Notes: generated by a model not told the origin, from the sequence alone. A stretch of 64,000 nt of DNA from Promethearchaeota archaeon (GCA_048938105.1 JBHLMN010000011.1:143709-207708), one strand, 5' to 3'; positions 31,931 through 59,855 are shown, counted from the stretch's first letter. Program-made: numbers and translations.

Positions 31931-32620
31931 ATGATCAGGGATGAACCCATGATAGAATCCATCAGGAAAATGATTCATTTTCTATTATTTTACCCAATAT
32001 ATTATTACATTTGGTTTAATTTGCTGGGAAAAGATCTCTTAAAAAATTCGCTATTAATACTTATTATAATAATCTTTTTCGGAATAAACTTGCTAGATAT
32101 TGCTATAAGACCAATGAGTGACCCCGAAGAGCTTAAAGATAAATATACTATAATAATATTACTCTTTTTCCTTGGTGGGCCTTTGATTTTGTTACTAGCG
32201 TTTTATGAAAATCAGGCAATCATTTCTCAATATCTACCAATTTATGATAATCTTCTAGTAAGCTATTTGGGAATAATATTAATGATAATAGGTGGGATAA
32301 TTATGCTGAGTAGCCGATATTATCTGAATAAGTATAGCTACGGTGGGGGATCATTATCGGAGGAAAAAGAACAGACATTACTCACGAAAGGCATGTTTAA
32401 AATCATTAGACATCCAATCTATGCAGGAGGATTAATAGTTACAATTGGATTGGAATTGGCTTTTCGAAGCCTGATTATATTATCTCTCCATACAATAATT
32501 TTTTTTATAATATTTCGTGATCGAATGAAACGTGAAGAAATAGTATTACTCAACAAATTTGGAGACGAATATAGAGAGTATATCAATAAAACGAAGAGAT
32601 TAATACCATACATCTATTAA
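31931..32620 (+). CDS. Isoprenylcysteine carboxyl methyltransferase (ICMT/PEMT)-family membrane methyltransferase
   Basis: LLTKGMFKIIRHPIYAG, REE..L..KFGDEYREY...TKRLIP. Confidence 0.88.
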   Translation: MIRDEPMIESIRKMIHFLLFYPIYYYIWFNLLGKDLLKNSLLILIIIIFFGINLLDIAIRPMSDPEELKDKYTIIILLFFLGGPLILLLAFYENQAIISQYLPIYDNLLVSYLGIILMIIGGIIMLSSRYYLNKYSYGGGSLSEEKEQTLLTKGMFKIIRHPIYAGGLIVTIGLELAFRSLIILSLHTIIFFIIFRDRMKREEIVLLNKFGDEYREYINKTKRLIPYIY

Positions 32621-34680: not shown

Positions 34681-35574
34681 ATGGAGGCTAACAGTATGAG
34701 TAATGATTCTGAAGAAAGAATAAACGAAGATGATATTTCCATCATTAGAGTATTTATTACCAAACATTCACTCATTTTATTCTTTCTCCTAAGTTATCTA
34801 CTCATGTTTCTACCCGTAGTCTTAATATTTTTTAGATTTTTACCTCTTTTAGATTCATTGTTTTTCTTAATTGCAATATGGAGTCCAACAATTTCCGCTG
34901 TATTTCTTATAGGAATAATTAATGGCCAGATTGGCATCAGGAAGCTTTTCAATGGATGGTTCATTTGGAAAGTTTCCTTGTTCTGGTATTTTGCTGCTGT
35001 TATACTTATTCTAGGACCATTTATTGTTGCATTAATTACTATTCTCTTGGGGGAGGAACCAACAGGAATAGATCCAAGTATGACCATACCTACATTAGTG
35101 CTAGCTTTGATAGTTACTATTCACAACGGCCCTTTGTGTGAAGAAACAGGTTGGCGAGGTTTCGCTCTACCAAAAATAGAATCAAGGTATGGAGCTCTGG
35201 GAGCTAGCGTTATTTTAGGAATTTTATGGGCATTTTGGCATCTCCCATTATATTTAATCGAGGAGCGAATAAATTTCGTTATATTTGTGCCATTATGTTT
35301 AGCAATTACAATATTAATGACTTGGGCTTATAACAATACAAATGGGAGTCTATTTATTACATTTCTATTCCATTTTTGCTTTAATTTTAGTGCTGGCTGG
35401 ATTACAGGCTATTTAGGCTTAATGGAACCAATGCTGTATTATATTAGCGGAGGAGTAATGATTTCAATATATGTTATTTTGATTATCCTAGTTGAAAAAC
35501 CTGCTAAGTTCTCAAGAAAACCAGCTTCAGAACTACCATTTTTATTTGATACGAATTTATTAGGATCTTTCTGA
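34681..35574 (+). CDS. CPBP (Abi / type II CAAX protease) intramembrane metalloprotease
   Basis: EETGWRG, WAFWHLP, GSL...FHFCFN. Confidence 0.92.
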   Translation: MEANSMSNDSEERINEDDISIIRVFITKHSLILFFLLSYLLMFLPVVLIFFRFLPLLDSLFFLIAIWSPTISAVFLIGIINGQIGIRKLFNGWFIWKVSLFWYFAAVILILGPFIVALITILLGEEPTGIDPSMTIPTLVLALIVTIHNGPLCEETGWRGFALPKIESRYGALGASVILGILWAFWHLPLYLIEERINFVIFVPLCLAITILMTWAYNNTNGSLFITFLFHFCFNFSAGWITGYLGLMEPMLYYISGGVMISIYVILIILVEKPAKFSRKPASELPFLFDTNLLGSF

Positions 35575-45008: not shown

Positions 45009-46472
45009 TCAAGTGACATTCTCTCCAAAGAATGCCTCCAAGTCGTTAAGTAAGAATTCTAGTGCTTTTTCCTTTATTTTCTCCATAGTTACGGAATCAG
45101 TAGTTTCTTCTGCGAACTCGACTAGAAGATTAAGTTTACCAGAACATGTCACTACTCCTAGAACCAGATCAACAAGAGCTAATGGAAATCCTCCGCCTGG
45201 ATTAAATATCAATCTATCTAATTCTAATGATCCATATGTTCTCGGAAAATCTAATCGAGTAAGGTTTGTAATAGCCATTCCGAGAAAAGGTTTGTCTAGT
45301 GAATCCATCTTCTGTCTTTTGAGAATTGAGGAAACAACATCATCTTGCTTACTGAAAGTAGTGAGTTTATCATAGCGTGGAGAATCTGAAGAAACATATC
45401 TTCCAATCATTTTGAATCCTAGTGATTCTAAAATAGCTGGATCAAGATAGCACCAGGTCAAGGGTTCCTTGAAAAGATCTTTATTTGTGTACCGGTTTTT
45501 TAGAGTCTGATTTAATTTTCGTGCATTTTCCCAGAAACTCTTTTTCTCATTGTACTTGAAATCATGAGTGATACCACTCGCAAAATAACCCATAGCTTCT
45601 CCACTTGGAGTTTGAAGTCGATCTCTTATACTACCAGCGACCATAACATTGGAATTAACTTTATTGCCTTTAATGATAGACTGAGCAGCTATAAAGGCAG
45701 ACATCAATGCTGTATTTATGGTAACTCCTTCTTTTTTACATTTAGCAACTAAAGTGAAAGTATCAGTTTCTGAAAGTTCAACAGAGATCATTTGATGGGT
45801 AAAGGTTTTCCAATAAGCTTCATTAAGGCTTTCATAATCTATTTGATTGAAAAATATCGGATTACTAGCCCATTTCTTATTAATCCTATTGATGAAATAT
45901 TTGACAATTCGATTCATAGAGACTTTTTGAGGAAAATTATCTTCATCAAAAGGAACAGGGTTGGGTAAAACTTCCACCTCTTGAGTGGGATTTCCAAGGT
46001 ATGTCATAATATCTCTTGTAAGATAAGCCAAAGACATTCCATCACATATAATATGGTGGCAGACCATCAATAACTCTGAAACGGATTTTGAATTAACAAG
46101 AATAAAACGAATAGCTGGACGTTCTTCAAATTGGAACGGTATCTTACATGATTGATAATATATAGACTTCCAGTGTTCTGGGGATTCTCGAGAGATAATG
46201 GTTATAGGAATTTCTTTTATTCCATCAGAGGAAAACCATGGTGTACCAGAGTCATCGATATGGATACGTACTCGCAGATTAGCATGCCTTTGTTGTGCTT
46301 TCTTAATAGCATCTTTTAGGGAAGATTCAGAAACTTCTCCTTTAATCCGAGCGATCATGGTAACTATAGAATAGGGAGAATGACTGAAAATTCGTTCCAA
46401 TGGAGTAATCTTTCTATAAATCTGATCGATTTTTTCTAATGTCGTAATTTTCTCTGAATTCATGCTTTTCAC
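45009..46472 (-). CDS. Stand-alone condensation-domain / CoA-dependent acyltransferase (PapA5/alcohol acetyltransferase-like)
   Basis: RHANLRVRI, HHIICDG (HHxxxDG), ITNL. Confidence 0.85.
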   Translation of the reverse strand: MKSMNSEKITTLEKIDQIYRKITPLERIFSHSPYSIVTMIARIKGEVSESSLKDAIKKAQQRHANLRVRIHIDDSGTPWFSSDGIKEIPITIISRESPEHWKSIYYQSCKIPFQFEERPAIRFILVNSKSVSELLMVCHHIICDGMSLAYLTRDIMTYLGNPTQEVEVLPNPVPFDEDNFPQKVSMNRIVKYFINRINKKWASNPIFFNQIDYESLNEAYWKTFTHQMISVELSETDTFTLVAKCKKEGVTINTALMSAFIAAQSIIKGNKVNSNVMVAGSIRDRLQTPSGEAMGYFASGITHDFKYNEKKSFWENARKLNQTLKNRYTNKDLFKEPLTWCYLDPAILESLGFKMIGRYVSSDSPRYDKLTTFSKQDDVVSSILKRQKMDSLDKPFLGMAITNLTRLDFPRTYGSLELDRLIFNPGGGFPLALVDLVLGVVTCSGKLNLLVEFAEETTDSVTMEKIKEKALEFLLNDLEAFFGENVT

Positions 46473-46727: not shown

Positions 46728-48785
46728 ATGACCTTCAAGAGCACAAAAAATCAATACTTAAAATTAATTATTCTTTTATTTATTTTTACTTCGATTTTTC
46801 AATTTATAACCTCCGCTAATCACCCGATTACAAAAAATTATTATGCGTCAGATCTAGGGGTTCGAACTGATCTGAAATTATTTTCAAATAAAGCTACTTC
46901 AAATTCTAATCAATGGACGATTATGGCAATTGTTAATGCTGAAGCGATATTTGGAGAACATGCTGCTTTGGATTGTTTACAAGAACTTGAAGATGGCTTT
47001 ATACTCGGTTCAGGTATTGAAGTTGTTGCTTTAGTTGATCGTATCCCTGGTTATGACAGTTCAAATGGTAATTGGACAAACTCGCGCTATTATCATATTG
47101 TTCCAGATAATGACACAAGAGTAATTAGTTCCGAGCTCATTCAGGAATACAATGAATTAAACCTTGGTAATCCTAATACTTACAGAAATTTTGTACTTTG
47201 GGCTCAAAGTACATATCCTGCTGAAAAATATGCTCTCACCTATATCGGCCATGGTGGTGCGGTAAGTGGCTTTAGTTTTGATATTTCTAACCAGGATCAT
47301 CTAACTCTCGATGAATTTCAGCAAGCAATGTCTGGCCTCTATGTGGATGTTGTTGTTCTTGATTCATGTAAAATGGGTACTCTTGAACTGGCCTATGAAT
47401 CTCGTACATTCACAGATTATATTGTATTTTCCGAGCAATTTTCTGTAACGGAAGGCCTTGATTACAAAGCTTTTATTGAAGAATTATGTAACAAACCTTC
47501 AATGGAACCTTTAGAATTAGCAGAAATTATAGCTCGTACATCTCTGGAATGGTACACATGGAAATGGGATCTTACACATTCAGTGGTAAATTGCTCTGCA
47601 CTTACACCATTTGTTAATGAACTGTCAAAACTTTCAGTCGAATTAAACAATCTCCTTCCACAAGAAATAACTAGAATAGCAGATATTAGATTATCCGCAT
47701 ATTCACTTGATCATTCTTACTTAGATTTAGGATCATTTCTAAATACCCTCCATTACAATTTTAGCAATAATATATTGATTCAGGATCTCACACAATCATT
47801 AATTGAGCTTTATGATGATATTATTCTATTCAATTATGTAGATGCTTATGCTCAAAACGCTACAGGATTAACCATTTTCTATCCGCAAGATGCTAAGTCA
47901 TTAACGAACATATTTGATTTATCCAGCTATATGAATGCAACAAATTTCTTAGATTTTGATTCTCTAGATTTCCTTAGAGATTGTCTCTGGGATGAATTTT
48001 TGTATAAATATTTACTAAATGCTCCATTAGTAAAAGAACAATTTGTACCAATTGTTAACATTGAGCCGGAAACTCCTATCAATGTCGATATCTCCCCTGA
48101 ATATTCCTCGAGAAAATACAAAATCGAAATCAATACTCCCACTGCTTATCATTTTACTCTAGATGTACAAGATGGTGATCCTAGAATGACCGTCGAAAAG
48201 TCTACTTCAGGTGGACATAGCCTAGGACACCTAGGATATCTGTTTTCCGATGTGCAAAATCCTGAACAAGATATATCTGAAGATATTGTTCATTGGTTTG
48301 AAACAGGTTCTTACATAATAGAGATACAGAGTTGGACTCCATTTGCAAATGGAACTTTATTCGTGAAACAAGAGCCAATACAAAATTTAACCCTAGATGT
48401 AACAATCAAGGGTGAATTCCCTCCTAGAAGAGCAGTTACTCCTCCTATTAAAACAATATATAATTATTATATGATAATGTTTGATGGAGGTAGTTATGAG
48501 CTACTATTAGATATTTCTGATCACGGCCTTTTACATGTTAAAATGTGGGACCAAACAAGATCATCTTTAAAGAAGGAGTTCTATGGAAATGAGGGGGAAG
48601 ATTTTCTGTATCCTTTTACTCTGGACGATTCAGAAATACTTCTGCTGGAATTTGCATGTTATGAATGGACAGGTTCATATGAATTAAGTGTAATAAAAAC
48701 AAAAAGGCCTATATCTATTAATTACTCATTTATTGCAGTTCTAGTATGTTTAGGCATCGTTTCACTTATAAGGAAACAAAGATAA
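46728..48785 (+). CDS. Clostripain-family (C11) cysteine peptidase, surface anchored
   Basis: Signal peptide; WTIMA, ELNLGNP, YPAEKYAL..IGHGGA (His), LDSCKMGTLE (Cys); C-terminal beta domains, TM + RKQR. Confidence 0.9.
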   Translation: MTFKSTKNQYLKLIILLFIFTSIFQFITSANHPITKNYYASDLGVRTDLKLFSNKATSNSNQWTIMAIVNAEAIFGEHAALDCLQELEDGFILGSGIEVVALVDRIPGYDSSNGNWTNSRYYHIVPDNDTRVISSELIQEYNELNLGNPNTYRNFVLWAQSTYPAEKYALTYIGHGGAVSGFSFDISNQDHLTLDEFQQAMSGLYVDVVVLDSCKMGTLELAYESRTFTDYIVFSEQFSVTEGLDYKAFIEELCNKPSMEPLELAEIIARTSLEWYTWKWDLTHSVVNCSALTPFVNELSKLSVELNNLLPQEITRIADIRLSAYSLDHSYLDLGSFLNTLHYNFSNNILIQDLTQSLIELYDDIILFNYVDAYAQNATGLTIFYPQDAKSLTNIFDLSSYMNATNFLDFDSLDFLRDCLWDEFLYKYLLNAPLVKEQFVPIVNIEPETPINVDISPEYSSRKYKIEINTPTAYHFTLDVQDGDPRMTVEKSTSGGHSLGHLGYLFSDVQNPEQDISEDIVHWFETGSYIIEIQSWTPFANGTLFVKQEPIQNLTLDVTIKGEFPPRRAVTPPIKTIYNYYMIMFDGGSYELLLDISDHGLLHVKMWDQTRSSLKKEFYGNEGEDFLYPFTLDDSEILLLEFACYEWTGSYELSVIKTKRPISINYSFIAVLVCLGIVSLIRKQR

Positions 48786-48840: not shown

Positions 48841-49182
48841 ATGGAAAATCAAAATATGGATCAGGACATAAGCTATAAAGAACGGCTATTCTGTGAATTG
48901 ATCCTTCGTCAAAGTGGGGCAGCTCGGTTTTCAAGGATTGCAGCCGATACTTTAGGAAAGATCTTGAAACGAGATTTTAACTTTAAAGAATTCCCTTCTG
49001 TGATTATAAAAAAAGATCCAGAAACAGGAATAAGTTTTGGAAGACTAGAAGATGCCGAGGTTGAAATTGCACAAGTAGCTACAAAGATTGCCAAAAAAGC
49101 TGTTAATTATGCCCAGCAAAAGGGACGAAGAACAGTAAAGGTTTCGGATATTGAAACAGTTGCCTCAGAGGTAAAAAAATAA
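48841..49182 (+). CDS. Archaeal histone-fold protein with a 34-aa insertion
   Basis: ILRQSGAARFSRIAADTLGKIL-[34 aa]-AQVATKIAKKAVNYAQQKGRRTVKVSDI matches the HMf-type GA.R.S..A...L and A...GR.T.K..DI patterns. Confidence 0.82.
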   Translation: MENQNMDQDISYKERLFCELILRQSGAARFSRIAADTLGKILKRDFNFKEFPSVIIKKDPETGISFGRLEDAEVEIAQVATKIAKKAVNYAQQKGRRTVKVSDIETVASEVKK

Positions 49183-49419
49183 TAAATGATGAACTTGAGT
49201 TTTGATCCTAATGAAGATGGAAAGCTTTACTTTCGCTTTATAAATTCTGAATGTCTTCAAACCTTAGTTAATAGACATTATCCGTATCAATATCAGTATT
49301 TCTATAGACTTAACCGACGACTTGTTCCGAAAAGAATCTGATACAGGAATAATTTTTATATCATTGATGTCTTATTATATACTAGCTATTCTAAAGTATT
49401 AAAAATTAATCTATTAAGA

Positions 49420-50727
49420 GTGGATTATGTGAAAGTAGCAATTATCGGATCGGGAATAGGTGGGTGTTCTGCAGCATACTTTTTAAAGGAGCTAATACCT
49501 GAATCTATTGATATTACTATTTTTGAGAGTAATAACAAAATTGGAGGACGTTTACTTAACAGAAAAATAAACCCAGTAGTAGTAGAATTAGGAGGAACTT
49601 TCTTTCATTCAGTGAATTTAAATGTGCAATATCTTGTAGAAAAGCTTTCCTTAGAGAAAGAAGAGTTCATTTTACCTAAAATAGGGGTCTGGAATGGATC
49701 AAAATTCATCTATAAATCTAGTTCCACGACTCTAGTAACTAATCTCAAATTATTACTTCGGTATCGAAGAAGTGCGCTAAATTTATTGAGTTTATTAAAG
49801 AGAGCAAAGCAAGAAATATTAAGTGTTTATGCAAATGATAGATTAGACAAGCATTATAAAACGTGTGAGGAATTATTTGGATCCCCTTTCCTTCTAGATT
49901 GTACCAGAAAAACCTTGGAAGAAGTTCTCAATGAAAATGGAATATCTTCAAAACTAATTAAAGAAATAATAGAACCAGGTACTAGGTATATTTATCATCA
50001 AGACATCGACATTGATGGTTTTGCAGGGATTACGACGATAATAGCTTCTGACGGTTCTCCGATTTATAAAATAAAAAATGGAAATGTTCAACTTAATAAA
50101 GCTCTTCTAAAATCAGCAAATGCTAATGTTAAATTAAATCAAAGAATTGTTAAAATAAATAGAATCGAAAATAAAGCTTTCTTATTAACAACACAACAAG
50201 GGGACTCAGAAGAATATGATGCGGTTATTATAGCAGCACCCTTAGAACAAGCAGATATAGAATTTGAGAATTTAGCTATACCTGATTTAGAGAAAAGAGA
50301 ATTTCGTAAAATCTATATAAAGCTCATTGAAGGCCAATTAAATCCAGAGTATTTTGGAATGACTAATGTTTTAGAGATACCTGAATTGTTACTCACTACT
50401 GCTGATTTTACAGGCCCTTTCGATAATCTTGAAACTTTAGGGAAGTCTAAAGCAGGAAACTTTGTGTATAATCTCTTCTCTCCTCGTCCTATCCCAGAGG
50501 ATTTAGTCGAAAAAATGTTTAGAGAATGTGTAATTGAAGAAGATTTCCACTGGAAATATGCCCATCCAATACCCAAACCAGCTACCCAGAATTTTCAACC
50601 GTTTTTGTTAGAGACTCGGCTTTTTTATATCAATACTGTGGAGTCCGTAGCTTCAACAATGGAGACAATGACTGTAGCTGCCAAAAATGCTGTTTTATTA
50701 TTAAAGAAAGAGTTGGAAAAAGAATAA
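49420..50727 (+). CDS. Prenylcysteine oxidase/lyase (PCYOX1-like) FAD-dependent enzyme
   Basis: KVAIIGSGIGGCSAAYFL, ELGGTFFHSVNLN, IGVWNG, KLLLRY, YDAVIIAAPL, FYINTVESVASTMETMTVAAKNAVLL. Confidence 0.85.
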   Translation: MDYVKVAIIGSGIGGCSAAYFLKELIPESIDITIFESNNKIGGRLLNRKINPVVVELGGTFFHSVNLNVQYLVEKLSLEKEEFILPKIGVWNGSKFIYKSSSTTLVTNLKLLLRYRRSALNLLSLLKRAKQEILSVYANDRLDKHYKTCEELFGSPFLLDCTRKTLEEVLNENGISSKLIKEIIEPGTRYIYHQDIDIDGFAGITTIIASDGSPIYKIKNGNVQLNKALLKSANANVKLNQRIVKINRIENKAFLLTTQQGDSEEYDAVIIAAPLEQADIEFENLAIPDLEKREFRKIYIKLIEGQLNPEYFGMTNVLEIPELLLTTADFTGPFDNLETLGKSKAGNFVYNLFSPRPIPEDLVEKMFRECVIEEDFHWKYAHPIPKPATQNFQPFLLETRLFYINTVESVASTMETMTVAAKNAVLLLKKELEKE

Positions 50728-51184
50728 CATTGAGGGTGATCTTCTTGGAAAATTGTTTTCATCCTTATATGTGGTTTAATGATTTAATAAGGATTTTTTT
50801 CTTGATATTTAGAAAATATTAAAGGACCTGTTGTTTCTCAGGAAATTGTGTTATTAGAAACAGTTTCATAATGTAATATATCTAAATAGCAATCGCATTT
50901 TCTTATATAACAGATGTGCAATAACCAACGTTTCTTCAGAACTGTTCTTTTACTTTTATTGAAAGAATCATTACTTTTCCTATAATGAAAATCATCTTGA
51001 CAAAATGATATGTCAAAATTAATTTTTAGGTTGTTTGACTAGTACTCTTTTCTAACAACGTTTTTTTTATAAATCAGCATTAATTAATTTGCGTTTTCTA
51101 TATGTGTTTGAATTCCGACTTGGCTAGTATGTAGCCCTGCTAATATATAATCTCAATGCATACTCACTAAAGTGGTGTCATAAA

Positions 51185-51496
51185 GTGACAATTTTTAGCC
51201 GTATCTTCGGGAGATTCTTTAAGTTACAACCTACTGAAACTCATGATGTAGCTGTCGAGCGCGACATCGAGGTACCGATGCCAGACGGTGTTGTTCTACT
51301 AGCTGATTTCTATTATCCCCGTAAGGGAGGTAAACGCCCGATCATACTCGTTCGATCACCTTACGGTAGAACAAGTTTTTTTGGTCTCTTTTATGGTCGA
51401 CTCCTCGCAAAACGCGGCTTTCAAGTGCTGACGGATAATCAGGTAGAACTCAGTATTATAGCTACATGTATCAAAATATTGGTTGGTCAAGAATAG
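51185..51496 (+). pseudogene. Truncated CocE/NonD-family hydrolase (N-terminal fragment only)
   Basis: VPMPDGVVLLADFYYP...ILVRSPYGR...LAKRGFQVL, after which similarity ends before the catalytic serine; locally higher GC. Confidence 0.85.
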
Positions 51497-51613: not shown

Positions 51614-52966
51614 CTATGTTAAAGATCCTTGACTTTTTCTGAGTGGATCGGCATTGACAAAGAAGTAGAATAATACCGCTGCTATAAAGATAAATATGCC
51701 ACATATAGGACCCCAGAGGATTAATCCAATAGTATATTCTTGCCCTGCAACTAGAGGAAGAATCTCTTTATCGACTAAAATGCCTGTGAGAACCACGGCT
51801 CCTGCCTGAAAAATATTTAATGGCAAGCCAAAAAAGCCAGTATAATGACCTGCACGGGCTTCACTGGTATCTCTTTCATCTTTTTCAATAATATCAGCCA
51901 TAATCGCGTAAGGTAATATGAAATAACCTGACATTCCGACTGCAAGAAGTAGAGCAAAAATTATTCCCTGAATTAATAGTGGTAATGGTATAATGCCTTG
52001 TCCTACAACCAGAGTCGTTGGTAACACTAATGCAAGATAAAATTGAGACACAAGGTATGTTTTAGTTTTTGAATAACGATTTGAGAAGTATCCCCAAAAA
52101 ATAAACAGTACAATAATAGTTCCAAACAAACTTATTCCAAAAATAATGTACTCTGTTACATTGAGTTGTAGTACATCATCAATATAAACCAAAACTATTG
52201 TTGCAAGTGAAGTAAGCCCTATGGTATGGATACCATTCACCAAAATCCATGAAACATAGTTTCTATTAGATAATATAATTTTAAGCTCTCTTAAAGGATT
52301 TGGAGGAGGGATATTTTTTCGGGCGGGATCTGGAACCAAGAAAATACTTGGTAGATAGAACAATAATTCAAGACCTGCAATGATCAATACACAAATTAAA
52401 AGGATGATTCCTGCGGAGCCTAGGATGTCCGCTGTTTCAGGATCACCAATTAATGAGGGTAAGAGAAATCCAAGCCCAGTTCCAACAAGGTTTCCAATGA
52501 AATTTGCAGTATTTTGATAACCGGAAACTTCAATTCTTTCGGATTCAGGAACTACTTCAGGCATCCAAGCTTGAAAAGGTGTTGTTAAAAGGGCATAAGA
52601 AGCCTGAAAACCAGATCCAAAAATCGCCAGATAAAGAAATACAAGGAATTCATTACCTAAAGGGACAAATAATTGTGGGGAGAACTGCATTATAAAAAAG
52701 AATGCCAAGATAGGAGTAAAGAATATCACCCAAATTCTTCGCCTGCCAAATCGATTGTTTGGGGTAATATCACTTAAATAACCACTTAACCAAGAAGCAA
52801 TAGCTATTGAAAGTTTTCCCATTCCTCCTGCCAAACCAGTATAAAATCCTGACAATGCGAAGTACTTAATATAAACATATAATGTAAAAAGAGACACTAA
52901 ATTCAACATTACACTACTGCCAAAACGTCCCATCCCATAATAGATTTTTTGTCTTTGATTCAGCAA
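51614..52966 (-). CDS. MFS transporter, GPH (melibiose/glucuronide:cation symporter) family
   Basis: GYLSD..NRFGRRRIW, PFQAWMPE, MADIIEKDE..TSEARAGHYTG; about 12 TM. Confidence 0.92.
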   Translation of the reverse strand: MLNQRQKIYYGMGRFGSSVMLNLVSLFTLYVYIKYFALSGFYTGLAGGMGKLSIAIASWLSGYLSDITPNNRFGRRRIWVIFFTPILAFFFIMQFSPQLFVPLGNEFLVFLYLAIFGSGFQASYALLTTPFQAWMPEVVPESERIEVSGYQNTANFIGNLVGTGLGFLLPSLIGDPETADILGSAGIILLICVLIIAGLELLFYLPSIFLVPDPARKNIPPPNPLRELKIILSNRNYVSWILVNGIHTIGLTSLATIVLVYIDDVLQLNVTEYIIFGISLFGTIIVLFIFWGYFSNRYSKTKTYLVSQFYLALVLPTTLVVGQGIIPLPLLIQGIIFALLLAVGMSGYFILPYAIMADIIEKDERDTSEARAGHYTGFFGLPLNIFQAGAVVLTGILVDKEILPLVAGQEYTIGLILWGPICGIFIFIAAVLFYFFVNADPLRKSQGSLT

Positions 52967-53910: not shown

Positions 53911-54140
53911 GACGATTACTTAGAGTAGAGCTGTTCGACTTCGGGTTGGTTCATTCACATCGTGAACCCTAAGAGATCCGTGAGAAACAGTCTGCGGTAC
54001 CGATGATGGTACGGCTAGAACAATTCAGCTGACCGTCGGCTTTAGATCTCTGTGTGCTTTCTATGAAAATTATACCAATTCCGCTCCGTTAGTTTCCACG
54101 ATTCATCTACCGATCATAGACCGATGGTTTTCTCACGGAC
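53869..54140 (-). ncRNA. Unidentified GC-rich structured RNA-like or non-autonomous element, long copy
   Basis: Several hairpins, an 11-bp long-range inverted repeat (53977-53987 / 54129-54139), G-U pairs favouring the minus strand, and a partial second copy at 60937-61021. Confidence 0.55.
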
Positions 54141-55082
54141 TACTATAAATTTCGATTGCAAATTTAAGATGAAATAGATACCAATTATCCAAAAAGAATA
54201 AGGGATTATAACTATTAATCCTGTCTCGATTCCCCATGAATTACCAATTAACCATATCGGGCCATTTAGAGTTGTTTGCGCACCAAAAATACTGTCAGAC
54301 ACCCATCCAGAAAGATTGTATAATTCTGTTGCGAAGAGATCATGTGCAAAATGTAAGCAAATTGGATAAATCAATGACTGAGTTTTTAAATATGCATACG
54401 CTAAGATTACGCCGGGAAATAACAGCATTATAAATAAGATCACTAAATTCACCCCTTCAGCTTCATTTGACAATAGATGTACCGCTGAAAAAAGGATTGC
54501 ACTCACAATAATTGCATATTTTTCATTAACAGCTTCCGAAATTTTAGTAACTAAGAAACCACGAAAAGTTAATTCTTCAAAGAATGCAACAAATAAATTA
54601 AGAGCGAGAGCAATAAAAATAAGGCTTGATAGAGATAAGAAATCAGTATTATTCCATTTCCAAGTCTCTACTACAAGAAAATTCATATTAGTTTCGATCA
54701 AAAACACGCTACTTAATCCCACAAAAGAAACACCAACACCAACAAAAACTAGTATGGGAATCTCTTTTTTCTTATAGAGATGAAAATATTCTCTCAAATG
54801 CTTATTCACAATTAATTTAATTGCTAAAAACCAAAACAAAAGCGAAAATATGGCAATAAATCCTCGTGTAAAAATCGGGTAGAAATAATATTCTAAAAGC
54901 AGGTTATTTATTATTTGTTCAAGTAATCTTCTTGTAAAAGAAGCAATTACACCAATTATCGCCTGTAACAAAAAATAGGTCATAAATAACAACAAAAAAA
55001 TGCCACAAATTACAAATGAACCCCTTAACGATTCAGATTTATACTCACGAATCCATATAACAACATTTTGCAGCTTACTCAT
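54114..55082 (-). CDS. CPBP (Abi / type II CAAX protease) intramembrane metalloprotease
   Basis: EELTFRG, FSAVH, SL..PICLHFAHD, GNSWGIETG. Confidence 0.92.
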   Translation of the reverse strand: MSKLQNVVIWIREYKSESLRGSFVICGIFLLLFMTYFLLQAIIGVIASFTRRLLEQIINNLLLEYYFYPIFTRGFIAIFSLLFWFLAIKLIVNKHLREYFHLYKKKEIPILVFVGVGVSFVGLSSVFLIETNMNFLVVETWKWNNTDFLSLSSLIFIALALNLFVAFFEELTFRGFLVTKISEAVNEKYAIIVSAILFSAVHLLSNEAEGVNLVILFIMLLFPGVILAYAYLKTQSLIYPICLHFAHDLFATELYNLSGWVSDSIFGAQTTLNGPIWLIGNSWGIETGLIVIIPYSFWIIGIYFILNLQSKFIVVREKTIGL

Positions 55083-59608: not shown

Positions 59609-59855
59609 AACATCCTCCTACCTAAAAGTTTTGAAGTCATTTTTGAGTATAACCAACGTGTAAGTAAAATTAACGTACTTTCAAGAAAAAAGGATCAAGT
59701 CTCCAAACATCAACATATCTCGCTTTATTTCTTCTAGTACGGCGCAGCTTTCATGCATATAAAACGCTAGTCTTAACCAACGTTGTTCAAAAAAAATGAT
59801 AAAGGAATAGTTTTTCCCTTAAAAATAAGAATAGAAAGATCAATTCATTTAAAAC

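Follow-up and report, generated by a model that had tools for sequence, protein, structure and literature searches.

A full-length prenylcysteine oxidase family gene in a Hodarchaeales archaeon with no detectable protein-prenylation machinery

The gene and its predicted protein

A 64,000-nucleotide stretch of DNA from a Promethearchaeota archaeon (GCA_048938105.1, JBHLMN010000011.1:143709-207708; the whole stretch is referred to below as the window) carries, at positions 49420..50727 on the plus strand, a gene for a flavoprotein of the prenylcysteine oxidase (PCYOX) family. The eukaryotic enzyme cleaves the thioether of S-prenylcysteine to give cysteine, an aldehyde, and H2O2, and to our knowledge PCYOX is known only as the final step in the disposal of prenylated eukaryotic proteins. 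The archaeal gene is a single open reading frame (ORF) of 435 amino acids with a GTG start codon. A further in-frame GTG at 49429 fits the starts of homologues better, and since the closest homologues start at the site matching this codon, the protein may be 432 amino acids long. The genome containing the window (designated G000; G042, G043, G055, G062, G068, G072, and G073 are other Asgard genomes compared) measures 5.85 Mb, is 99% complete with 7% contamination, and holds one copy of the gene. An earlier reading made from the sequence alone (the sequence-only reading) had described the ORF as a full-length homologue of eukaryotic PCYOX in an Asgard-like archaeon. The host is indeed a member of the Hodarchaeales, with 72 Ras-family matches in G000.

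The family assignment was likewise upheld. Among Pfam profiles, the best match to the ORF was PF07156 (Prenylcys_lyase; E=1.8e-60), which scored 205 bits, over its curated cut-off of 27, and was covered from position 3 to 356 of 363. The generic Amino_oxidase profile scored 67 bits, below PF07156, and Rossmann families (NAD_binding_8) were also weaker, so the ORF is not better described by another flavoprotein family. A search of NCBIfam returned no specific model for the ORF; matches were confined to the N-terminal flavin adenine dinucleotide (FAD) motif of such enzymes as protoporphyrinogen oxidases and lay far under the cut-offs. The top sequence match in the PDB was 9fxq, an ancestral mammalian PCYOX1 (E=1e-45, residues 5-427), and the runner-up reached E=7e-11. 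All of the motifs picked out beforehand by eye were found and could be aligned to PCYOX1 (HSVNL with HPLNL, GVWNG with GIYNG, KLLLRY with KLLWHY, and the C-terminal YINTVESVASTMETMTVAAKNAVLL). The confirmed result is that the ORF in G000 belongs, over its full length, to the PF07156 prenylcysteine oxidase family. The ratio of nonsynonymous to synonymous substitution rates (dN/dS) of the gene was 0.19 against the copy in G072 and about 0.10 against the copy in G068, indicating purifying selection. Automatic annotation at JGI already labels metagenomic proteins of this kind "prenylcysteine oxidase/farnesylcysteine lyase"; the literature searched, from which most subscription journals are missing, yielded no publication dealing with PF07156 proteins from Asgard archaea or from archaea of any other group.

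The structure of the protein was predicted with AlphaFold2 using an alignment of 40 family members, and the resulting model had a predicted local distance difference test score (pLDDT) of 94.2 and a predicted template modeling score (pTM) of 0.92. When the model was superposed on 9fxq, template modeling (TM) scores of 0.90/0.85 were obtained, with a root mean square deviation of 2.7 A and 26% identity, whereas nicotine and monoamine oxidases gave TM scores of only about 0.68. Residues of PCYOX1 were mapped onto the archaeal protein allowing for an offset of 20 between the chain numbering of 9fxq and the numbering used in PMC11530802. The Rossmann FAD dinucleotide-binding motif, GSGIGG, occupies residues 10-15 (49447..49464, plus strand), within the NAD_binding_8 and Amino_oxidase matches, and its G12 and G15 are invariant across the 40 aligned family members. 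Tyr192 (codon at 49993..49995, plus strand) aligns with Tyr221 in 9fxq and is kept in 38 of the 40 members; in PCYOX1, the Y221A mutant is inactive (PMC11530802). The codon at 50563..50565 (plus strand) specifies His382, equivalent in the alignment to Tyr433 of PCYOX1, which is dispensable in that enzyme and is replaced by His in PCYOX1-like (PMC11530802). This His was seen only in the G000 protein and its two closest relatives, with Tyr present in most other members. Tyr221 and the Tyr433 position have been tied to the cysteine head group (PMC11530802). At the C terminus, the family motif YINTVESVASTMETMTVAAKNAVLL (residues 403-427; 50626..50700, plus strand) was aligned to PCYOX1; over the 40 members, E415 is invariant and Y403 nearly so, and most members retain N405, E408, and S412.

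The residue lining the substrate tunnel is different. Thr205 (codon at 50032..50034, plus strand) aligns with the tunnel residue Val234 of PCYOX1, a position at which Trp abolishes catalysis and at which PCYOX1-like has Met (PMC11530802). Thr, Ala, or Ser occupies this position in the window's genus and in the Bathyarchaeia clade; eukaryotes, bacteria, and most copies from two other families of the same class (f5 and f6) have Val or Ile.

The N terminus is short. The Rossmann GxGxxG begins at residue 10 of the G000 protein, and a signal peptide is absent, as had been claimed at the outset; the secretory or lysosomal N-terminal targeting signal that characterizes eukaryotic PCYOX is thus missing from this protein. 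In nearly all prokaryotic members 7-22 residues precede the GxGxxG, and leaders of 27-78 residues, several of them hydrophobic, are found on most eukaryotic members. Judging from this short, leaderless N terminus, the archaeal PCYOX-family enzyme is most likely cytoplasmic.

Placed beside characterized relatives, the protein most resembles mammalian PCYOX1 and PCYOX1-like (9fxq; Barone et al. 2024, PMC11530802), with which it has in common the Pfam family, a two-domain fold, the Rossmann FAD motif, the essential Tyr, and the C-terminal motif. His382 likens it to PCYOX1-like at the Tyr433 position. It differs from mammalian PCYOX1 in having neither signal peptide nor retention signal, in being about 50 residues shorter, and in carrying Thr in place of the tunnel Val234. 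Plant farnesylcysteine lyase (FCLY) and other eukaryotic PF07156 proteins are about 30% identical over the full length and share the same conserved columns; they differ in mostly possessing leaders of 27-78 residues and in their position in the family tree, in a eukaryote grade outside the archaeal clade described below. The flavin amine oxidases (NicA2, pseudooxynicotine oxidase, monoamine oxidase [MAO], and protoporphyrinogen oxidase) have the same superfamily fold and FAD domain, but their TM scores are about 0.6-0.7, their identity is 12-17%, and the matches mostly comprise the N-terminal FAD motif only.

Protein prenylation in the host

The sequence-only reading had inferred turnover of S-isoprenoid-cysteine from the cell's own lipid-modified cysteines or from scavenged material and had suggested a search of the genome for protein prenyltransferase subunits. 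In the 99%-complete G000, no match to the PPTA repeat of the alpha subunit was found. Two marginal matches to PF00432 were considered as a beta subunit and rejected, one falling in an alpha-2-macroglobulin, on its thioester domain, and the other in a 275-amino-acid toroid protein (30 bits). The former is an ORF of 1989 amino acids outside the window (locus L017, G000:C61:26927-30325) with A2M, TED, and MG10 domains, in which TED gives a spurious weak "prenyltransferase" match. G000 therefore lacks an alpha subunit, and neither PF00432 match makes a credible beta subunit.

Likely acceptor proteins were no more suggestive of prenylation. The 72 Ras-superfamily GTPase matches include, for example, C52:423336-423824 and, inside the window, the Ras-type GTPases at C61:183140-183619, C61:185459-185977, and C61:205528-206031. 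None of the 71 Ras-family ORFs whose C termini were read ended in CaaX, CC, or CXC, and Cys within the last five residues was seen in two of them, at positions -5 and -2. Across the genome, Cys occurs at position -4 in 24 of 3816 ORFs (0.63%), below its overall frequency of 1.0%. There is thus no sign of protein-prenylation machinery in G000, and a supply of substrate from the cell's own prenylated or lipidated proteins, as originally envisaged, is not supported. In this respect the host differs from the mammalian hosts of PCYOX1, since no protein prenyltransferase, CaaX proteins, catalase, or haem-copper oxidase were detected.

Proteins of the ICMT and Rce1-like families are numerous: G000 holds 25 ICMT-family (PF04140) and 16 Rce1-like CPBP (PF02517) paralogues, both families being common in prokaryotes, as judged from control genomes. 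Examples inside the window lie at about 32357-32548 (plus strand), 35092-35388 (plus strand), and 54114-55082 (minus strand). Throughout the window's genus, ICMT-like genes number 3-25 per genome, with or without PCYOX. Their expansion was rejected as a linked pathway, the counts being about 3.1 per Mb in PCYOX-positive and about 2.7 per Mb in PCYOX-negative genomes of the genus. The Rce1-like CPBP gene at 54114-55082, 3.4 kb downstream of the PCYOX gene, was likewise rejected as a partner; it is one of the 16 paralogues and has no homologue near PCYOX in 22 other loci.

Distribution and phylogeny of the family

Within the Asgard phylum, PF07156 was detected in 13 of 399 genomes (12 of them over the cut-off), and 12 of the 13 belong to three families of the window's class, Heimdallarchaeia, which among archaeal classes is the one most often regarded as closest to eukaryotes. 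It is present in 6/21 genomes of the window's genus (f1), 2/3 of f5, and 4/12 of f6, and in none of the 31 genomes of a further family of the class (f4). Outside the Asgard phylum, the family was found in 7/301 genomes of Bathyarchaeia and 4/301 of haloarchaea; in Chloroflexota (1/301 over the cut-off) and Acidobacteriota (1/301), the seed genome was the only one. None of the 14 control model genomes contained it. When 1.84 billion cluster representatives were searched exhaustively with phmmer, 305 matches at E<=1e-30 were obtained, many of them eukaryotic by name or leader. The prokaryotic hosts named among the matches listed include Bathyarchaeia, other Heimdallarchaeia, haloarchaea, Chloroflexota, and Acidobacteriota. 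The PF07156 proteins of these groups are leaderless, 415-450 amino acids long, endowed with the same conserved residues, and rare everywhere. In sequencing runs, near-identical DNA was found in sediment and mangrove metagenomes, and no RNA datasets with near-identical sequence were listed.

PF07156 is therefore rare and patchy among prokaryotes and commonest in Heimdallarchaeia. The family is not confined to Asgard archaea, and its bacterial occurrence is far from widespread. A eukaryotic signature protein would be broad in Asgard archaea and nearly absent from other prokaryotes, and the PF07156 counts do not show this pattern. The proposal of a candidate eukaryotic signature protein is thus not supported, given 13 of 399 Asgard genomes, further copies in Bathyarchaeia, haloarchaea, and a few bacteria, and, as described below, a bathyarchaeal sister clade and an unplaced root.

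The same counts bear on whether the enzyme might recycle the cell's own lipoproteins by cleaving S-archaeol-cysteine after proteolysis of lipobox proteins, an idea akin to the lipoprotein source named as an example in the sequence-only reading. Archaeal lipoproteins do bear thioether-linked archaeol on cysteine (PMC12462473), which speaks for such a substrate. If it were correct, however, the gene should abound in the lipoprotein-rich haloarchaea, where it was found in only 4 of 301 genomes, and few lipoproteins are predicted in Asgard archaea (PMC12462473). The gene is absent from 15 of the 21 genomes of the genus. In addition, the enzyme is predicted to be cytoplasmic while the lipoprotein anchor sits on the outer face of the membrane, and archaeol, a two-chain glyceryl thioether, is bulkier than a prenyl chain and chemically unlike it. 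Taken together, these observations make lipoprotein recycling a very improbable role.

The phylogeny of the family was analyzed with FastTree (193 sequences) and with IQ-TREE (74 labeled sequences; LG+C20 posterior mean site frequency [PMSF] model, short search, branch support from the Shimodaira-Hasegawa-like approximate likelihood ratio test [SH-aLRT] only). With FastTree, the G000 copy grouped with those of its own genus in a well-supported clade, and a clade of Bathyarchaeia was sister to this group. With IQ-TREE, the Asgard copies of f1, f5, and f6, the Bathyarchaeia, and two sequences without assigned origin formed one group with a support of 95. This archaeal group adjoins Amoebozoa-type sequences within a set, supported at 98, that includes fungi, Creolimax, Rhizamoeba, and Polysphondylium, and plants, animals, and algae lie further out. 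The bacterial sequences and Halorubrum were split from all other sequences at a support of 98. A free tree under LG+F+G4 had the same layout as the PMSF tree. Without a root, the order is archaea, a eukaryote grade, and bacteria, with the bacterial and Halorubrum copies in separate groups at the end of the tree opposite the archaeal clade. Bacterial copies are thus rare and form a separate clade, and the archaeal protein does not nest among them. Rooting was attempted with COG2907-like flavoproteins of Methylophilaceae as the outgroup, which joined the tree within the fungal sequences by a branch 2.18 substitutions/site long; this rooting was judged unreliable, a branch of such length carrying a risk of long-branch attraction.

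Approximately unbiased (AU) tests were performed on saved trees evaluated under LG+F+G4, a weaker model than the PMSF mixture. By these tests, forcing eukaryotes to be monophyletic cost 20 lnL (log-likelihood) units relative to the PMSF tree (p-AU 0.19) and 42 relative to the free LG tree (p-AU 0.064), and forcing Asgard monophyly without Bathyarchaeia cost 58 units (p-AU 0.050). Because the root of the family tree is unplaced, vertical inheritance and transfer are both possible: the gene may have descended vertically from archaea to eukaryotes, it may have been transferred from eukaryotes to archaea in ancient times, or eukaryotes may have donated it separately to both prokaryotic groups. Exchange between Hodarchaeales and Bathyarchaeia is the best-supported single event in these trees.

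These results allow the eukaryotic-signature idea to be weighed in the form that eukaryotic PCYOX descends vertically from a Heimdallarchaeia-centered archaeal clade and that the Bathyarchaeia and bacteria acquired the gene secondarily. The archaeal copies do form one group beside the eukaryotes (SH-aLRT 95), with the bacteria beyond the eukaryote grade, and eukaryote monophyly is not rejected by either comparison above (p-AU 0.19 and 0.064). The archaeal clade is also deep, with about 33-36% identity between f1, f5, and f6, and prevalence is highest in the window's class (6/21, 2/3, and 4/12) against 1-2% or less elsewhere. However, most of the Asgard genomes searched, among them all 31 of f4, lack the gene, and the clade of the window is sister to Bathyarchaeia, with the 58-lnL penalty for Asgard monophyly (p-AU 0.050). 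The outgroup root, though prone to long-branch attraction, falls inside the eukaryotes, and the prenylation machinery was not found in G000. We therefore regard a vertical archaeal source as unlikely, though deserving of consideration. To the same modest extent, the Heimdallarchaeia-centered clade might represent the ancestral stock of eukaryotic PCYOX, from which the earliest eukaryotes inherited a function that had cleared S-isoprenoid-cysteine compounds in an isoprenoid-lipid archaeon and later recruited it, with a signal peptide, for the degradation of prenylated proteins. If so, catabolism of lipid-cysteine thioethers would predate protein prenylation.

Gene neighborhood, proposed function, and significance

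The surroundings of the gene are not conserved, even among genomes of one genus. In 22 other loci, the vicinity of the PCYOX gene contains no homologue of any other gene at 39-61 kb of the window. The window is 92.5% identical in DNA sequence to G072 (locus L055, G072:C35, 2639-4109), but only over 49300-50770, that is, over the gene itself with 120 bp on its upstream and 43 bp on its downstream side. Sequences beyond this shared block are unrelated in the two genomes, and other genes common to G000 and G072 are 66-86% identical and located elsewhere. Synonymous divergence (dS) of the PCYOX gene between the two genomes is 0.20, and, together with the block pattern, this looks like a gene-sized relocation or a recent exchange within the genus, which we offer as a lead. 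The A/T-rich region upstream of the gene (49300..49419, plus strand), which reaches to the edge of the shared block, probably contains a promoter of its own that travels with the gene. Since the gene is present in 6 of 21 genomes of the genus, has no shared neighbors in 22 loci, and owes its 92.5% identity to a segment confined to 49300-50770, the best reading is that PCYOX is an accessory gene that is horizontally mobile within archaea.

Downstream of PCYOX by 887 bp, and convergent with it, lies a gene for an MFS_2 transporter (51614..52966, minus strand; Pfam MFS_2, E=1e-28), a possible functional partner. Orthologues of this MFS gene in G068 and G073 are on contigs different from those of the respective PCYOX genes. 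A transporter adjoins PCYOX in 5/6 loci of the same genus, namely, MFS_2 (in G000), MFS_1, EamA, and two ABC exporters, and an MFS gene follows the PCYOX copy of Blastocatellia. As these transporters belong to different and common families, the association, and with it a small-molecule theme, is suggestive only.

Several other features surround the gene. Between PCYOX and the MFS_2 gene, an ORF of 103 amino acids (51185-51496, plus strand), probably the remnant of a gene, matches Peptidase_S15 (CocE/NonD-type alpha/beta hydrolase) over no more than the initial ~55 profile positions. A repeat of ~30-60 bp that is dispersed through intergenic DNA is present at about 50903-50965, just downstream of the PCYOX gene, and at 59629-59659; in three genomes of the window's genus it is found on numerous contigs, at 91-100% identity. 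Directly upstream of PCYOX, an ORF of 113 amino acids (48841-49182, plus strand) matches the PF00808 histone fold at residues 78-106 only (E=2.7e-5), which would fit a histone with an internal insertion. Farther upstream are a clostripain-family (Peptidase_C11) protein of 685 amino acids that has a hydrophobic segment near its N terminus and a hydrophobic anchor at its C terminus (46728-48785, plus strand) and, adjoining its gene, a stand-alone Condensation-domain (PF00668) protein of 487 amino acids (45009-46472, minus strand).

Neighbors in other families are of another kind, with UbiA genes at the f5, f6, and one of the Bathyarchaeia loci, as opposed to the transporters of the window's genus. 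A UbiA prenyltransferase gene adjoins the homologue in G042 and G043 (both f5), in G055 (f6), and in one Bathyarchaeia genome. Beside PCYOX and UbiA in G042 (L053 9392-11507) and G055 (L061 5606-10165), a protein of ~365 amino acids with no Pfam match recurs in one or two copies that are 30-45% identical. These arrangements raise the question of a different chemistry, in which the archaeal branch has drifted to a substrate other than cysteine, for example an isoprenoid amine or an intermediate, be it a thioether or an alcohol, made by a UbiA-type prenyltransferase. The altered tunnel residue in the f1 and Bathyarchaeia clades and the oxidation of amines by the wider superfamily are in line with such a drift. 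Against it, the residues associated with the cysteine head group (PMC11530802) are kept (Y192 and His/Tyr at 382), G000 has no close homologue of either the f5/f6 UbiA or the ~365-amino-acid protein, and the Bathyarchaeia UbiA is unrelated at the blastp level to the UbiA genes of f5 and f6. On balance, we consider a non-cysteine substrate quite unlikely.

The function toward which we lean, with somewhat more confidence than doubt, is that of a soluble flavin thioether oxidase, or a dehydrogenase, acting in the cytoplasm to cleave free compounds of the S-isoprenoid-cysteine type for salvage or detoxification rather than for turnover of the cell's own prenylated proteins. A hydrophobic tunnel would bind a free cysteine bearing a long S-linked chain of isoprenoid type, and the carbon beside the sulfur would be oxidized by hydride transfer to FAD. 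Hydrolysis would then free cysteine and a lipid aldehyde, the presumed products, and the flavin would be reoxidized by O2 or possibly by another acceptor. The substrate is more likely to be an imported or adventitious compound of this type than a breakdown product of the cell's CaaX proteins, and an imported or adventitious substrate would make the protein an accessory enzyme of salvage or detoxification.

Several observations weigh against this assignment. Because Thr205 replaces the tunnel Val234, the preference for the chain may differ. No haem-copper oxidase and no catalase were found in G000, which makes an H2O2-producing oxidase in the cytoplasm awkward; a dehydrogenase mode in place of the oxidase is only a guess. 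The genome does encode a cytochrome bd quinol oxidase, and exposure to low O2 is therefore plausible. The neighboring transporters, one of them convergent, belong to differing and very common families, and their adjacency may be due to chance, while the UbiA genes that instead adjoin the f5, f6, and Bathyarchaeia homologues could point to isoprenoid or quinone-type lipid metabolism rather than to salvage of cysteine conjugates. Finally, no prokaryotic member of PF07156 has been enzymatically characterized in the literature searched.

As it stands, the result is a well-supported annotation rather than evidence on eukaryogenesis, and an accessory gene that is rare and mobile, and whose host genome shows no sign of prenylation, says little yet about the origins of eukaryotes. 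The presence of a conserved, leaderless PCYOX in archaea showing no prenylation does imply that the PF07156 family has an unstudied prokaryotic substrate, which is probably some S-linked isoprenoid-cysteine compound. The peak of prevalence in Heimdallarchaeia and the position of the archaeal clade beside the eukaryotes bear on a possible archaeal origin of this part of the eukaryotic lipid-modification cycle.

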